A stretch of DNA of 54,467 bases from the IMG/VR virus record IMGVR_UViG_3300045988_123643; one strand, given 5' to 3'. This DNA comes from a virus. Below, piece by piece: positions 1-54,467 of the stretch. Made by a program: the position numbers and the translations under genes. How positions within the stretch are numbered: position 1 is the stretch's first letter; each line of letters opens with the position of its first letter. Under the pieces are notes generated by a model. That model searched no databases and was not told the DNA's origin. It saw nothing but the letters and a program-made list of their open reading frames with translations.

Positions 1-119
1 CTTGAATCGGTCTGAATTGATAGAAAATTGTCTTATTTTCCCTTAAATGGATGAAAATAGAGATATAATTAAAAAAACAGTTCAAAGATATTTCAAAGAA
101 TTACCCTCTTTATTTGCCC
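1..119. repeat. Terminal direct repeat, copy 1 (identical to 54349..54467)
   Basis: Base-for-base identity of CTTGAATCGGTCTGAATTGATAG...CTCTTTATTTGCCC at both ends of the window. Confidence 0.95.
81..100 (+). promoter_or_regulatory. Candidate integrase arm-type site: TTCAAAGATATTTCAAAGAA (tandem TTCAAAGA)
   Basis: 19/20 identical to 326..345 in the same orientation, on the opposite side of the tRNA-Pro fragment. Also present at 54429..54448 inside the end overlap. Confidence 0.4.
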
Positions 120-176
120 CAAAACGAGGTCTAATTACACCTATTTACACAAACGAAAAAAGCCGATACAAACTGT

Positions 177-196
177 ATCAGCTCAACACTATTCAA
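177..196 (+). promoter_or_regulatory. Copy 1 of a 20-nt intergenic motif ATCAGCTCAACACTATTCAA
   Basis: 19/20 identical to 5625..5644 and near-identical to 52995..53013. All three copies are intergenic and in the same orientation. Confidence 0.55.
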
Positions 197-219
197 TTTT
201 TCTTGACTTTGTTTTTTCG

Positions 220-266
220 TCGGGGTAGCGGGATTCGAACCCACGACCCCCTGCTCCCAAAGCAGA
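220..266 (-). other. attP core candidate: 3' 47 nt of a tRNA-Pro(UGG) gene, with no 5' half
   Basis: The reverse complement reads TCTGC-TTTGGGA-GCAGG GGGTC GTGGG-TTCGAAT-CCCGC TACCCCG A. That is an anticodon arm with UGG, a variable loop, a T arm, the 3' acceptor strand and the discriminator. Sequence at 267..300 has no D arm and no matching 5' acceptor strand. Confidence 0.7.
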
Positions 267-325
267 TTGTTTTAGAAGGATATTCAGCTACAAATCAATT
301 AATTATAATGATGTGAGCTAACCTA

Positions 326-345
326 TTCAAAGATAGTTCAAAGAA
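326..345 (+). promoter_or_regulatory. Candidate integrase arm-type site: TTCAAAGATAGTTCAAAGAA
   Basis: Second copy of the 20-bp double TTCAAAGA repeat, about 60 bp from the tRNA fragment. Confidence 0.4.
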
Positions 346-347
346 CG

Positions 348-485
348 CTATTTTGAGGGCTTTATTTTAGCCTTTTCTAACTCATAATTTAATAAAGCAA
401 TTTCTTGCTTTTGAGCACTTTTTTCCTGTAGTACTTTTCGAAGTTGTTGCCGGAGCAAAGTTATTATTTTGTCTTTTTCTTCCAT
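348..485 (-). CDS. Possible 45-aa coiled-coil ORF (MEEKDKIITLLRQQLRKVLQEK...)
   Basis: Hand-translated ATG..TAG frame, below the ORF-track size cutoff. No recognisable motif. Confidence 0.2.
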   Translation of the reverse strand: MEEKDKIITLLRQQLRKVLQEKSAQKQEIALLNYELEKAKIKPSK

Positions 486-523
486 ACCTTATATCTCTTA
501 CATTACTACTTTCAAATATGTAC

Positions 524-1012
524 TTATGGGAAAACTATAACTTGAACAGATGAATTCTCTTCGCAAAAATCATCACTCCATGTAAACCGTACATTATATT
601 GCTCTTTATAAGAATCGTTCCGATATGAAATATCTACATGTTGTGTAGGCAATAGTTTCGCATAAGGAAAGAAATCATCTTCAACAAAGAAAAAAACTTC
701 TTCATTATCAATTATTTCTATATTTATATTCCTAGCATCAGACAATCCCATATTTTTCATCCTCAATCGCCGAGCTTTTCCTTTCTCTATAGGGTCTAAA
801 ATTTCGCAAATGATGCAAGCTTTCTTTTTATTTCTTTCTTGCTCTTCATTTTCTTTGATGATATAATCATTAATTTGGGATTGTTGATCATTGATTGTTT
901 TTTGCTGCCTGTTTAGCCTTCTTGTATGATTGACATATACATATAAACTAAACAAAAAACTAAATCCCATAATGAGCCATTCAATCCAATCTTTTGTAGA
1001 AACATTATTCAT
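524..1012 (-). CDS. Hypothetical membrane-anchored protein (N-terminal TM helix, KE/Q-rich linker, C-terminal domain)
   Basis: 162-aa ORF. The hydrophobic stretch WIEWLIMGFSFLFSLYVYV lies near the N-terminus. Last gene of the attP-proximal minus-strand string. Confidence 0.5.
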   Translation of the reverse strand: MNNVSTKDWIEWLIMGFSFLFSLYVYVNHTRRLNRQQKTINDQQSQINDYIIKENEEQERNKKKACIICEILDPIEKGKARRLRMKNMGLSDARNINIEIIDNEEVFFFVEDDFFPYAKLLPTQHVDISYRNDSYKEQYNVRFTWSDDFCEENSSVQVIVFP

Positions 1013-1221
1013 TGTCTATATTTTAATAGAAAACATGGAAAATATTTATTTGGCATCTCTTATCGTCCTGATTATTGTTCTATTGTTTGCAGGCATTGCT
1101 TACGCTATAGTATATATATTGAACGAATTGTATGAGACTGCAAGTAGTCTATTGAAGAAAAGAATTATCGCCACCATATCAATTATATTGCTATTAAGTT
1201 TTTTGTATTTTTTACCTATAT

Positions 1222-1479
1222 TCATCTCTCATTTTTAAGCATTTGCTTAAACTTAGTCACCTTATCCGCATTCGTGTCATCGAAAGATAATATTTTATCA
1301 ATAATACATGAATTATCTAAATCTTCATGAGAACTTGGAAGCCATCTACATAGAAAAATATCTATGTCATTGCTAGATTGCCAATATATAACGTAGTTTC
1401 CACTAGGTAATCTTTTATAAAATAAATCACCATATTTCTGCGAAATGCCATAAGCTGCAAGATAAACTATTGGTGGCAT
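1222..1479 (-). CDS. Hypothetical 85-aa protein, tightly coupled to the upstream DUF4062-like gene
   Basis: The start lies 1 nt after the stop of 1481..2581 on the same strand. Confidence 0.5.
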   Translation of the reverse strand: MPPIVYLAAYGISQKYGDLFYKRLPSGNYVIYWQSSNDIDIFLCRWLPSSHEDLDNSCIIDKILSFDDTNADKVTKFKQMLKNER

Positions 1480-1480
1480 A

Positions 1481-2581
1481 TTAAAAAGGTAATCCAGTTA
1501 TAGCTTCTAAACTTCCGTCTAAAATAATTTTATTAAACTCTTCATTCATGGATTGGTTATCTTTAATAATAGGATAAATATTATCTAAATATTTGGAAAT
1601 TATATTTTGCATCTCGATCATATTAATCATATTAATCAATCTTTCATTGTCATTTTTCTTTGCGATTATATCATGTAGCTCATTCATTAAATCCCAATAC
1701 GGTTCAGAGTATTTATCTATGTGGGTCAATTTACTAATATAATAATCATCAAATAAAACAGAAGTAAATTTCTTGACAATATTCTCGCAATCTTCATTTC
1801 TTAAAGATTCTTGCTTTACAAAAGAAATATTATCATAAAAATAATCTTTAAAGAATTTGAAGATTATTATGTTCTGATTATAAATAACTTTTGTGTAATC
1901 ACCTGAATCTTGAAGAATATTTCTGCCTATGGCAGATAGCATTTCATTCATTCGTTGAGACACATTTTCTAATGACGAAATGGCATCAAGCATTTCATCA
2001 TCTTTTCTTTTTCTCTGTAACTGTTGAAGATATAAAAACAGCATACCTGATATTTGATTCTCCATATAATTCTCAATCTCTTCAACATGATCAAATGTCT
2101 TAATTGCAGTAGTGGGTTCTAAGATACTTATGAATTTGAAAATATTAATGTCGTCAACATGGGCAAAATTAAATACTATTTTATCCTCAAATATCTTCTT
2201 ATTCTTCTTATATGTCTGATATTCTGCATAAACATTCTTATCAATAAACACGAAGGAGGGTATTCCGGCCATAGTAGCAGTCTCATGCTCCTTTCTCGTT
2301 ATTGAAACATATTGTTCATAAAGCTCTTTTTTGTCTTGAGAGACTTGCTCTCCTGATGCAGCACTTCCATACCGCCCACCAACAATAAGCACCATCATTT
2401 GGCAAGTCTTGACTTCGTTATAACATGACAGGTCTAATGGTTTATTGAATTCGAAAGTAACATTATCATTTTCAAATAGAACAGGTTCCATTCCAAAGTT
2501 GGCTAGAAAACGTTCTATTCGCTCTCTTACATGCTTTAGGTCATAGTATGTTGAACTTAAAAAGACTCTAGGTTTTGCCAT
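1481..2581 (-). CDS. DUF4062-like protein (TIR/Rossmann-like N-terminal domain plus about 270-aa helical C-terminal region), candidate defence protein
   Basis: The N-terminus reads KPRVFLSSTYYDLKHVRERIERFL...CQMMVLIVGGRYGS...TRKEHETATMAGIPSFVFIDKNV, which follows the DUF4062 consensus as I recall it. No Walker A (GxxxxGK[ST]) anywhere in the protein. Confidence 0.6.
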   Translation of the reverse strand: MAKPRVFLSSTYYDLKHVRERIERFLANFGMEPVLFENDNVTFEFNKPLDLSCYNEVKTCQMMVLIVGGRYGSAASGEQVSQDKKELYEQYVSITRKEHETATMAGIPSFVFIDKNVYAEYQTYKKNKKIFEDKIVFNFAHVDDINIFKFISILEPTTAIKTFDHVEEIENYMENQISGMLFLYLQQLQRKRKDDEMLDAISSLENVSQRMNEMLSAIGRNILQDSGDYTKVIYNQNIIIFKFFKDYFYDNISFVKQESLRNEDCENIVKKFTSVLFDDYYISKLTHIDKYSEPYWDLMNELHDIIAKKNDNERLINMINMIEMQNIISKYLDNIYPIIKDNQSMNEEFNKIILDGSLEAITGLPF

Positions 2582-2601
2582 AATATTTGTGTTTTGAGTT
2601 T

Positions 2602-2784
2602 TTATTTATCTTCTTTCTTCACTCGCTTAGGATTATATGTCCTTTTTTCCTGTAGGTCATCTCGTTTAATCACGTATCCACCATTTTCATCCATTTCCTC
2701 AAAGGTTCCTTTATGTGGTTCCGCATTAGGATATATTCGCTCAACTTGAACACGATCACCTTTTTTTAATATTTCTTTTCCCAT
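2602..2784 (-). CDS. Hypothetical 60-aa basic protein
   Basis: The ORF ends 20 nt upstream of the DUF4062-like start on the same strand. Confidence 0.45.
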   Translation of the reverse strand: MGKEILKKGDRVQVERIYPNAEPHKGTFEEMDENGGYVIKRDDLQEKRTYNPKRVKKEDK

Positions 2785-2834: not shown

Positions 2835-3443
2835 TTATATTTTTGATAGTGCTTCTTTTAGATATGAAGTATCTGTCAGTGAGAATTTATAATTGCTTAA
2901 CGTACTCGAACTTGAAGATTCTGCAATAAATTTAGCTTCTCCTTCTTTTTGTAAAAAAGTCATTAGCGCTTCAAAATACTCTTCTTCTACAAAGTTGCTC
3001 CCGTTTTCTGCGTTATAGGTTTTGAATTCTAAAGTTTCGCCATCAAACCTCTTGGCTTTAAATTTAAAAAATCCTTCACCTTTAATTGGGTGATTTCGAT
3101 TGTATTCATATAGTTGTATTCTCATACCTGATTTGTCGATAATAAATTGAACGCCTAATTCTGAATTTGTGGTTGCTGAGTTGCTAAATGTACCTGTACA
3201 AAAGGTACGTATATACCCTTCCTGTGTTTTCTCTCCAAAATCGTCAACATAATGAGATAATTCCCAAATTCCAAATATGTTATTTTTTTCATCTATTGTC
3301 TTCAGTTCTCCATATTTTTCTTTATATGTAGATAACTCTGCTTTCAAAGAATCTATTTCGTTTGATAGTTTTACTGTTTGCTGTTGATTTGATGTGCAAC
3401 TTGTTAATAATGCAGTCATCGTTAAAAATAAAATCTTTTTCAT
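2835..3443 (-). CDS. Lipoprotein (moron-type, function unknown)
   Basis: Signal peptide plus lipobox MKKILFLTMTALLTSC, followed by a short coiled coil. Confidence 0.7.
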   Translation of the reverse strand: MKKILFLTMTALLTSCTSNQQQTVKLSNEIDSLKAELSTYKEKYGELKTIDEKNNIFGIWELSHYVDDFGEKTQEGYIRTFCTGTFSNSATTNSELGVQFIIDKSGMRIQLYEYNRNHPIKGEGFFKFKAKRFDGETLEFKTYNAENGSNFVEEEYFEALMTFLQKEGEAKFIAESSSSSTLSNYKFSLTDTSYLKEALSKI

Positions 3444-3537: not shown

Positions 3538-3951
3538 TTACTTATTCATTAATACATTAATCAATCGTTCCTTTTCCTCGAGAAGTTTATCCTTGCCTTC
3601 AAGACGTTTGTCCTTCTCATTAATAATGTTCTTTAGATATTGAATTTCACGCATTGCTGCTTCTAATTCATCTTGGCATTTAGATACTTCAAGTTTATTA
3701 TGTTCTCCTGAAACGACGGAGTTGCCGTTTCCATTAACTGAAGCAGAGTTGTTTTTATTGCAAATATTAGGATAAAAGAACGATATATCTTGTCCTATGG
3801 CAGTTGCAATGTTTTCAAGTAAACCTGTTTTTATATCATCAACCTTGAGATATGCATTAAAAGTCTGAGGACTTACACCTAATTTCACAGCAATTTCACT
3901 TTGGGTAAAGCCACATCTTTTTAATTTTTCTTTTATTTCTAAACCTGTCAT
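3538..3951 (-). CDS. XRE-family HTH repressor (CI-like) with a C-terminal coiled coil and no S24 peptidase domain
   Basis: HTH motif GFTQSEIAVKLGVSPQTFNAYLK, an N/G/S-rich linker, then a leucine-rich coiled coil. Divergent from the rightward early operon. The ATG at 3951 is preferred over the TTG at 3957. Confidence 0.7.
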   Translation of the reverse strand: MTGLEIKEKLKRCGFTQSEIAVKLGVSPQTFNAYLKVDDIKTGLLENIATAIGQDISFFYPNICNKNNSASVNGNGNSVVSGEHNKLEVSKCQDELEAAMREIQYLKNIINEKDKRLEGKDKLLEEKERLINVLMNK

Positions 3952-4029
3952 AATCAAGATATTATAAATTTATAAAACAAATGGCTGAAAATAATCAGTG
4001 TTTTATTTGATAAAATAAGTATTATGCTT

Positions 4030-35874: not shown

Positions 35875-35973
35875 AATTTCATCAAGGAGCCTAGCCCGTT
35901 GTACTTCCGGGCAATACTTCCGGTTATTTGCAACTAACCTTCAATACTTTCAGCTCCATCCTTCAATAGTTTG

Positions 35974-36047
35974 TTCCTGTAGGCGGAATCGAACCGCCGG
36001 TCTCTACATAATCAATGTAGCGCTTTAACCAACTGAGCTATACAGAA
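35974..36047 (-). tRNA. Phage-encoded tRNA, 74 nt, anticodon GAU by standard numbering (Ile), with atypical U1:A72 and U37
   Basis: Cloverleaf by hand: acceptor TTCTGTA/TACAGGA, D arm GCTC-AGTTGGTTA-AAGC, anticodon arm CTACA-TTGATTA-TGTAG, variable AGACC, T arm GGCGG-TTCGATT-CCGCC, discriminator A. No encoded CCA. Confidence 0.8.
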
Positions 36048-53054: not shown

Positions 53055-54305
53055 TCAGTCTTTTTTTTCTTCTTTTTTCTGTAATAAATCCAATACAGTG
53101 CGATTTGCTTTATCACAAATGCTATAATCTATATCAATGTAGATGTCAGCCATCTTATAATCATTATTCACATGACCGAGACAGAAGTCAATGTCTGCCT
53201 TCGGTACTCCGGCTTTATTTCTTGCCAAGCTGGCCCAGCTGTGGCGGGCCCAGTTCGTGGTGATTTTGAAGTCGAGTTCTAGATTCAGACAAATATCTTT
53301 CAGCCCATTATTGATTGCTCGCATGAAATTATTCAGGCTACAATAATTAGTATGAAAGTAGGAGAGGAAATACCCCTCTGTGTATTTATCGAGCAGGACG
53401 CGAAGCTCTGGCTCAATCTTGACGGAAAGCGGTACCTGTTCGTGATTCTTCTCTGTATTCGTTTTAGAACGCGTATATTCCAGTCTTCCGCGGCGTTCAC
53501 ACGAAATGCTATATAGGTCATTGATGTTGACTCCCATCATGTAGAACATCATCATAAAGACATCACGTGCCATATTAGTGCGTTTTTTATCAGATTGGAA
53601 ATCCCTGATCTTTAGCAAGGTAATGATATCTATATTCTTTCGTTTTCTCCGGTACTCCGGTATCTCAGCCTTTTTGAACGGATCGCCTGGGATTCTTATA
53701 ATATCAAAGTCCTCATTGTTGTAATAGAGCTTGGCTTTGTTATACAATGCTCTCAGTCCTCTAAGGTAATGGCTTATTGTGCCCGGTTCTAAGGGAATGC
53801 CGGCAGGACCGGAGTGATATAAGTCTTTGATCATCTTATTTAGCAGAAATGAGGTGATTAGCTTAATATCTATCTTCTTTCTTTTTGTGTACCAACATAG
53901 TGTATCAATAGAAGAGCTATACCATTCAGCTGTCTTTTTCTTTTTCGTCTGAATTACTATGTTTTGAGCGAACTCTACGAAGTCTATAAACTCGGCGTCA
54001 GGAGCTAGGGATTTCTCTATTTCTTCTTTTAAATCCTTGCATGACATAAACTGAGTTCTTTCTTGTCCTAGCTTTAAATACTCTCTCCGGATCTTTTGGA
54101 TATATGCATTGATCTCATACTCTATCATTTCTCCATTTGCCACATTAGGCAAGATCCGGCCGACTCCATCCATTCCTTCAGGTTGAATGAAATAACAAGT
54201 GGCTATATACTGTGACTCTCTATTGTGATAGATTCTAATTTTAATATTTGATGTTCCATCTTGTTTTAGATGTCCCTTAAATACAATTGCTTTAAATGTT
54301 GCCAT
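53055..54305 (-). CDS. int: Tyrosine recombinase/integrase (Bacteroidota phage type with an N-terminal arm-binding-like domain)
   Basis: C-terminal catalytic pattern ...ARHSWASLARN...LGHVNNDYKMADIYIDIDY (R, HxxR, H, Y). The N-terminal MATFKAIVFKGHLKQDGTSNIKIRIYH is typical of this integrase class. Confidence 0.9.
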   Translation of the reverse strand: MATFKAIVFKGHLKQDGTSNIKIRIYHNRESQYIATCYFIQPEGMDGVGRILPNVANGEMIEYEINAYIQKIRREYLKLGQERTQFMSCKDLKEEIEKSLAPDAEFIDFVEFAQNIVIQTKKKKTAEWYSSSIDTLCWYTKRKKIDIKLITSFLLNKMIKDLYHSGPAGIPLEPGTISHYLRGLRALYNKAKLYYNNEDFDIIRIPGDPFKKAEIPEYRRKRKNIDIITLLKIRDFQSDKKRTNMARDVFMMMFYMMGVNINDLYSISCERRGRLEYTRSKTNTEKNHEQVPLSVKIEPELRVLLDKYTEGYFLSYFHTNYCSLNNFMRAINNGLKDICLNLELDFKITTNWARHSWASLARNKAGVPKADIDFCLGHVNNDYKMADIYIDIDYSICDKANRTVLDLLQKKEEKKD

Positions 54306-54348: not shown

Positions 54349-54467
54349 CTTGAATCGGTCTGAATTGATAGAAAATTGTCTTATTTTCCCTTAAATGGAT
54401 GAAAATAGAGATATAATTAAAAAAACAGTTCAAAGATATTTCAAAGAATTACCCTCTTTATTTGCCC
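54349..54467. repeat. Terminal direct repeat, copy 2 (identical to 1..119)
   Basis: Base-for-base identity with the first 119 nt. Confidence 0.95.

Follow-up and report, generated by a model that had tools for sequence, protein, structure and literature searches.

A single DUF4062 gene in the lysogeny module of a human-gut Bacteroides phage as a probable abortive-infection defence of the Swarozyc/Evangelion kind

Two recent preprints describe phage defence by single genes built on DUF4062, a TIR-like NADase domain. "Swarozyc" of Klebsiella pneumoniae (KpSwz) is a single-gene abortive-infection system in which a domain termed AUX binds the phage portal, after which E97 hydrolyses NAD+ to ADP-ribose (ADPR) and nicotinamide; its structures are PDB 10wc, 11cq, and 11cv (Osinski et al. 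2026, bioRxiv 10.64898/2026.05.01.722283). "Evangelion" combines, in one gene, a DUF4062 core with a diversified AUX and is found on plasmids, prophages, and satellites, its family definition explicitly taking in prophage-borne lineages; the member Eva01 (S. aureus plasmid pMW2, WP_000072390.1) requires F11, E87, W162, and the AUX (Ibarra-Chavez et al. 2026, bioRxiv 10.64898/2026.06.25.731849). In KpSwz and Eva01 alike, one gene causes abortive infection, the catalytic glutamate and the AUX are needed, and NAD+ is lowered (10.64898/2026.05.01.722283; 10.64898/2026.06.25.731849). Here we analyzed a 366-amino-acid (aa) DUF4062 protein encoded close to attP in IMG/VR record IMGVR_UViG_3300045988_123643. 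The whole stretch of 54,467 nucleotides (nt), called the window below, is a temperate phage of human-gut Bacteroides.

Taken alone, the gene for the 366-aa protein is likely to be a prophage-borne defence by abortive infection, of the single-gene DUF4062 (Swarozyc/Evangelion) kind. This assignment draws on domain identity, a TIR-like fold, conservation of the catalytic residues, single-gene modularity, genomic position, and fast evolution of the AUX. The original prediction had read the locus as an undescribed system of four genes with a membrane effector. The claim that it is undescribed is not supported, because the two preprints already characterize single-gene defence by DUF4062 plus AUX; the locus is a putative member of this described kind, because their definitions cover prophage lineages and a diversified AUX. 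The predicted role in nucleotide processing fared better, and NAD+-processing defence is the best-supported function.

By homology with KpSwz and Eva01, the protein would be an NADase with an abortive outcome, and its AUX would be the sensor. Transcription of the repressor-side unit would supply the DUF4062 protein in the lysogen, where TIR-like domains and helical stalks would hold it as an autoinhibited oligomer. A superinfecting phage would supply a cue that is read by the hypervariable AUX, upon which the TIR-like domains would rearrange; the resulting NAD+ collapse would halt phage replication, and the infected cell would be lost.

The DUF4062 protein and its three parts

The gene and the parts of its product lie in the window as follows.

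1481..2581, − strand: gene for the DUF4062-AUX protein, 366 aa
2087..2581, − strand: TIR-like catalytic domain, residues 1-165, with a beta-alpha-beta core
2288..2290, − strand: codon for the predicted catalytic glutamate, E98, which does not vary among 50 + 36 aligned homologs
1832..2086, − strand: helical stalk, residues 166-250, with long helices at 166-194, 199-222, and 227-250
1484..1831, − strand: hypervariable C-terminal AUX (putative sensor), residues 251-366

Residues 5-88 match PF13271 (DUF4062) with an E value of 8e-19 (68.1 bits against a Pfam cut-off of 24.7 bits), and the N-terminal peptides on which the DUF4062 assignment was first made are present in the translation. More than 659 full-length or partial homologs were found, and GTDB hits of this lineage number 239; within the phage GenBank collection, the protein matched only two Acinetobacter prophage-like records, at 27% identity. 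An AlphaFold (AF2) model of the full-length protein, built from 50 homologs (predicted local distance difference test [pLDDT], 75), has three parts: an alpha/beta domain (through about residue 165), three long helices preceded by a short strand (166-250), and a C-terminal helical bundle. Because the TIR-like domain extends to about residue 165, the region that follows DUF4062 is helical, as predicted, but is about 200 aa long (stalk 166-250 plus AUX 251-366) and not about 270 aa. A Walker A motif is absent, as had been noted, and neither Pfam nor NCBIfam places the protein in an NTPase family; the P-loop NTPase or NACHT domain that follows DUF4062 in DUF4062-STAND/NACHT, TEP1-like, and NWD-like proteins is thus missing here.

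The catalytic domain is TIR-like in fold. Parallel strands at residues 5-10, 32-34, 62-67, 109-114, and 160-163 are flanked by helices, and the best Foldseek matches were the TIR domains of RPP1, SARM1, TIR-STING, and RPS4 (prob 1.00, E = 7.5e-4 to 5e-3). DNPH1 was among the weaker matches, the fold being near that of nucleoside 2-deoxyribosyltransferases (NDTs). Residues F7, S9-S10-T11, D14, G68-G69-R70-Y71-G72, S93-I-T95, and E98 are invariant in both alignments (50 and 36 homologs), and the motif S-x-T-x-x-E-[YFH] occurs in 117 of 120 homologs.

These residues align with those of the characterized proteins. A PDB search with the N-terminal half as a single sequence gave no match, and a diverse profile was needed: one made from 36 diverse N-terminal regions matched the KpSwz chain 10wc (E = 2.3e-4) and also TEP1-TIR (E = 0.015). 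E98 (…SITRK-E-HETA) falls on the mutated E97A position of 10wc (…SFTEK-A-FDYA). KpSwz and TEP1, whose catalytic glutamate is E1008, are NAD(P)+ hydrolases (10.64898/2026.05.01.722283). Eva01 aligned with the 366-aa protein by BLASTP (E = 7e-6) and hhalign (97%), with F7 on F11, S93-I94-T95 on S82-Y83-T84, and E98-H99 on E87-Y88, where the family consensus is E-[YFH].

The AUX is lineage-restricted, helical, and faster-diverging than the catalytic domain. Identity of homolog P0002 to the 366-aa protein drops from 98% in the TIR-like domain (1-165) to 88% in the stalk (166-250) and 56% in the AUX (251-366); for P0007, the corresponding values are 90%, 67%, and 22%. The stalk, which holds a conserved MNEMxxAVGK motif, diverges to an intermediate degree (88% to 46%). 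A weak profile match of the stalk (residues ~193-250, window 1832..2002; E ~0.07-0.1) to influenza HA2, which included the "MN…AVGK" letters, was set aside as probably reflecting coiled-coil composition.

When the AUX was modeled alone (residues 226-366), confidence was high (pLDDT, 90.3; predicted template modeling score, 0.85). This model had no significant fold match in the PDB (best E = 1.2, in a Foldseek library running to April 2026 that did not return KpSwz), and an AUX profile matched no PDB sequence, KpSwz included. An exhaustive hidden Markov model search of 1.84 billion representative proteins found the AUX in only 41 clusters, always C-terminal to DUF4062; short AUX matches are truncated gene calls, because their first residue is a Met inside the stalk motif. 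The sole credible viral structural match to the AUX, from BFVD, was a 358-aa gut siphovirus protein automatically named "deoxyribosyltransferase" (template modeling score, 0.57), which is apparently another member of the family. The C-terminal tail I-x-G-L-P-F-COOH (window 1484..1501) is conserved though the preceding ~115 residues are nearly unalignable, and [L/I/M/F]-P-F-COOH ends 92 of the 120 closest homologs; the tail may be a docking or latch motif.

Gene neighborhood and the lysogeny-side region

We collected 120 loci, and unbiased clustering of open reading frames (ORFs) near the DUF4062 gene covered the first 110. Across those 110 loci, the DUF4062 gene alone was common; the other large clusters were shadow ORFs inside it, and no conserved adjacent effector gene of the Thoeris-like type was found. 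Homologs of at most 56% identity (41-56%) keep the full architecture of 360-380 aa without the small flanking genes of the window. One of them is on a viral contig (L012), immediately after a cI-like repressor gene and on the same strand, and the rest are chromosomal (e.g., L005 and L008); the chromosomal homologs occur in Flavobacterium, Hanstruepera, Leeuwenhoekiella, Paenibacillus, and others. In the integrated copy L112, the DUF4062 gene is 59% identical and the neighboring small genes are 82-95% identical; therefore, the DUF4062 gene diverges, or is exchanged, independently of its neighbors. Gene content thus points to a single-gene system, with no conserved partner and a diversified AUX fused to the core.

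The four predicted − strand ORFs of 60, 366, 85, and 162 aa are all present, and they occupy, as predicted, a lysogen-side accessory position between the repressor and lipoprotein genes and attP. The accessory genes are co-oriented with the repressor and lipoprotein genes and point toward a tRNA-Pro(UGG) fragment. The surrounding features are listed below.

53055..54305, − strand: integrase
3538..3957, − strand: helix-turn-helix (HTH) repressor
2835..3443, − strand: lipoprotein gene
2602..2784, − strand: gene for a 60-aa basic protein, directly upstream of the DUF4062 gene
1222..1479, − strand: 85-aa ORFan gene, downstream of the DUF4062 gene
1035..1238, + strand: antisense 67-aa ORF with two transmembrane segments, in the "209-nt gap"
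1100..1225, − strand: 41-aa same-strand ORF, overlapping the stop of the 85-aa gene (ATGA)
524..1012, − strand: gene for the 162-aa protein (phrog_6723)
348..485, − strand: 45-aa coiled-coil-like ORF, between the 162-aa gene and attP
about 213-265, − strand: attP core, the 3' part of tRNA-Pro(UGG), matching tRNA-Pro genes

The phage genome is circularly assembled, bases 1-119 recurring at 54349-54467. In two integrated metagenome copies (L111 and L112), homology to the window stops exactly at 212/213, and the Bacteroides genes Methyltransf_3, Lon, and TGT follow. Scanning the integrated loci for tRNA genes revealed no complete one at the junction; the copy on that side is partial, and the contig ends within the other junction. 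A Bacteroides faecis assembly (L113, GCA_040923505.1) carries a 100%-identical copy of the attP-proximal end (window 1392..1). Past attP in this assembly (L113:1351-1788) come an integrase N-terminal remnant, 86% identical (65-aa ORF), and then a UbiE-type methyltransferase, an arrangement suggestive of prophage debris, tandem or older, at this one tRNA-Pro site. The phage also has a tRNA-Ile(GAU) of its own among the structural genes (35973..36047, − strand; ARAGORN; Rfam, 59.6 bits), which was the sole match of an Rfam search.

Accessory genes decay in prophage remnants. L111 is a decayed remnant of ~6 kb, with an integrase stub joined to early genes, and its DUF4062 gene (L111:3609-4709; 82% identical) is divided by an in-frame stop into 292 + 68 aa, and L112 has a frameshift in its 162-aa gene. 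The repressor-to-att accessory region is a hotspot for defence-type cargo. In L001 and L002, it holds a DUF6864 gene and a pair of NTase_sub_bind and NTP_transf_2 genes, a toxin-antitoxin or defence module of HEPN/MNT-like type (L001:4207-4946; L002:1371-2110), just upstream of a 59-aa gene and a DUF4062 gene that is 64% identical.

Alternative explanations

Since the gene is encoded by a phage, its product could act in counter-defence or host takeover, degrading a host immune signal (e.g., a Thoeris or CBASS nucleotide) or NAD+ for the benefit of the phage. Such an enzyme would suit the gut siphovirus homolog with the same AUX and the closeness of the DUF4062 fold to NDTs and DNPH1. We nevertheless consider it improbable: the gene lies in the repressor-side lysogeny module and not among the early lytic genes, most homologs of full architecture are chromosomal and outside prophages, and all characterized bacterial DUF4062 plus AUX proteins are defensive. 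The gene also survives in the decayed remnant, though with a stop codon there.

A multi-gene, Thoeris-like system, in which the DUF4062 protein would sense or signal and the two small proteins and the 162-aa membrane protein would be its partners or effector, would account for the tight spacing of the genes: 17 nt separate the 60- and 366-aa genes, and the 85-aa start follows the 366-aa stop by 1 nt, as originally described. The neighbor that bears most on this explanation is the 60-aa gene. It accompanies the DUF4062 gene in several sister prophages (85-88% identical in L001-4, L010, L111, and L120, where the DUF4062 gene is 64-98% identical), and both genes are missing from L116. One contig (L120:2467-3738; P0004) even carries an in-frame fusion of the first ~47 residues of the 60-aa protein to DUF4062. 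This fusion, however, is a single metagenome contig and arose by a deletion of ~33 nt that took out the basic tail and the stop codon. The 60-aa gene is absent, besides L116, from L012, L119, and all chromosomal loci, and its product matched nothing in Pfam, PADLOC, PHROG, or NCBIfam. It is the sole neighbor with some linkage, at most a lineage-specific accessory, and its product is possibly an accessory or regulator outside the conserved system.

The other two supposed partners are confined to close relatives of this phage, and unrelated genes take their place in L001, L012, L119, and L120. Homologs of the 85-aa protein number 38, none of them below 67% identity, and come from gut metagenomes or Bacteroides faecis; in L001, a sister prophage, a 77-aa gene stands where the 85-aa gene would be. 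The pairing of the 366- and 85-aa genes, expected to be conserved across genomes, is therefore not syntenic outside the relatives of this phage. The 162-aa protein belongs to phrog_6723, a family of unknown function (PHROG E = 1.3e-16), and has 14 homologs, all at least 74% identical; it had no match in the phage GenBank collection, and PDB sequence searches with it and with the 60-aa protein found none. The single N-terminal transmembrane helix ascribed to it is a hydrophobic helix but a marginal one, with no 19-residue window reaching the Kyte-Doolittle threshold of 1.6. Its gene and the antisense 67-aa gene are present in the sister phage L116/L117, which has no DUF4062 gene, and the 162-aa gene is an independent accessory gene.

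The 209-nt gap upstream of the 162-aa gene has the predicted spacing but is not empty, as it holds the 41-aa and antisense 67-aa ORFs. The 67-aa ORF encodes two strongly hydrophobic segments and shares 17 nt with the 3' end of the 85-aa gene. In the divergent L116 (4766..4969), it is intact, equal in length, and 60% identical. Nucleotide identity of its region is 97-98% in L111 and L112, compared with a protein identity of only 67-83% for the adjacent 85-aa gene. The 41-aa frame is called as a gene in L111-L113 and L118; in L116, it is only 46% identical and has a premature stop. Codon-position counts cannot separate the two frames, because their third positions coincide, and the 67-aa frame is preferred because of its integrity in L116. 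The antisense ORF is thus probably a real gene that interrupts the supposed operon, and the 41-aa ORF is the less likely gene of the gap. Since the 67-aa ORF is kept and the 41-aa ORF truncated in L116, the 162-aa gene is probably a separate transcription unit. The 67-aa protein might serve as a holin-like or exclusion protein or as a small membrane toxin. An antisense 67-aa gene in L001 was considered as its counterpart and is not homologous. At the prophage end, the 45-aa ORF recurs at 55-100% identity in L001-3, L111-113, and L116-120, whatever lies upstream; it is a phage-backbone gene, the most persistently conserved at this end.

With no neighbor family conserved across the 110 loci, a probable antisense gene between the 162-aa gene and the rest, and products of the characterized DUF4062 enzymes that are ADPR and nicotinamide and include no signaling nucleotide, a multi-gene system is very improbable; synteny largely refutes it. 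Only the DUF4062 gene of the proposed four is shared, and the 60-, 85-, 67/41-, 162-, and 45-aa genes are separate cargo of a variable lysogeny-side region. An NDT-type enzyme, which would exchange bases or salvage nucleotides with nucleotides or DNA as substrate, is scarcely credible. In its favor are a distant similarity of DUF4062 to NDT domains (10.64898/2026.05.01.722283), the automatic name of the BFVD homolog, and the weaker fold match to DNPH1; against it stand the TIR domains as top fold matches, the nearest assayed sequence relatives (KpSwz and TEP1) as NAD(P)+ hydrolases, and a long stalk with a hypervariable AUX, typical of sensor-effector immune proteins and not of metabolic enzymes.

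Several results weigh against a single-gene DUF4062 defence. Neither promoter scan exceeded chance (23 sigma-70 sites versus 24.6 expected; 54 sites of the Bacteroides −7 motif TAnnTTTG versus 58 expected), so no promoter or transcription unit could be assigned and expression in the lysogen is read from gene orientation alone; a terminator scan found none that was credible after the 85-aa gene. The Q-W-E motif (Q50-W51-E52 in Eva01; QWE in KpSwz) is replaced by L49-D50-L51, in which D50 is invariant within the lineage; L-D-L is a variant of the motif at the level of the lineage. Confidence in the full-length model is only moderate (pLDDT, 75). Eva02 gave no protection when tested (10.64898/2026.06.25.731849), so not every DUF4062 protein defends. 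No model of PADLOC-DB 2023 matched any of five proteins of the locus, a result that is uninformative because the database predates the DUF4062 papers. Support from defence-island context was weak for the chromosomal members: 119 neighbors in 13 chromosomal or viral loci were mostly housekeeping genes, with only one SoFic, one UG29 reverse transcriptase, and one PemK toxin-antitoxin pair among them. Neighbor matches to "RTasDnaG-like" and "BrxHI" were discarded as defence genes, being probably housekeeping DnaG and Lon.

The single-gene defence could be elaborated further, in a form that we regard as unlikely. The AUX (~41 representative clusters) would be a new sensor fold, perhaps for a phage cue other than the portal (KpSwz) or recombination intermediates (Eva01), the L-P-F tail would be an autoinhibitory latch or oligomerization peg, and, in the gut-phage sublineage, the 60-aa protein would be a dedicated modulator that keeps the prophage from setting off its own NADase when induced.

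Comparison with described systems

A DUF4062 defence at this locus would widen the newly described NADase family to include temperate phages of human-gut Bacteroides, a setting in which tested defence systems are few and in which prophage-borne immunity shapes the phage-host dynamics of the microbiome. The gradient of divergence, from a near-fixed catalytic domain to a nearly unalignable sensor, offers a natural series of specificity variants for mapping sensor recognition. A useful negative is that closely spaced genes in the accessory region of a prophage were no sign of a multi-gene system.

KpSwz resembles the 366-aa protein in being one polypeptide with an N-terminal DUF4062 domain, a short beta strand, a helical stalk, and a C-terminal AUX; both have the FxSST and GGRYG motifs and an aligned catalytic glutamate (E97 and E98). 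The profile similarity, however, is only ~24 bits and lies within the first ~110 residues. The AUX of KpSwz is an HTH/winged domain that binds the portal, whereas a stalk is predicted here but the AUX is a lineage-specific helical bundle without sequence similarity to that of KpSwz. KpSwz has QWE where the protein here has LDL, and it lies in an enterobacterial defence island, while the DUF4062 gene here is prophage-borne in a Bacteroidota host.

Like the gene studied here, Eva01 is a single gene on a mobile element with a conserved DUF4062 core and a diversified AUX. The two proteins are 26% identical, across no more than 110 residues; Eva01, a protein of 324 aa, has a shorter AUX that is unrelated to the AUX here, and its W162 could not be aligned with a position of the 366-aa protein. 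In Firmicutes, Eva01 resides on a plasmid, and mutants that escape it map to recombination proteins. Among plasmid relatives, the closest found is a DUF4062 protein of an Enterococcus antibiotic resistance gene plasmid (WP_228081223.1, pXD5), which aligns by hhalign at 99.2% over residues 2-249, that is, the TIR-like domain and stalk. Its gene sits between Fic and Doc/MazE-type genes; the protein is 392 aa long, its C-terminal AUX differs, and it has P-I-D at the Q-W-E position.

Thoeris ThsB, canonical TIR defence proteins, and SARM1-type NADases have in common with this protein a TIR-like flavodoxin fold, a catalytic glutamate (predicted here), and, on the reading proposed here, defence via NAD+. 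DUF4062 is a Pfam family separate from canonical TIR, though, and unlike in Thoeris, no ThsA-like partner effector is conserved beside the DUF4062 gene and the characterized products are ADPR and nicotinamide, not signaling isomers. The architecture and function are thus already known, from preprints only (May and June 2026); what is particular to this locus is its lineage-specific, structurally unmatched AUX.

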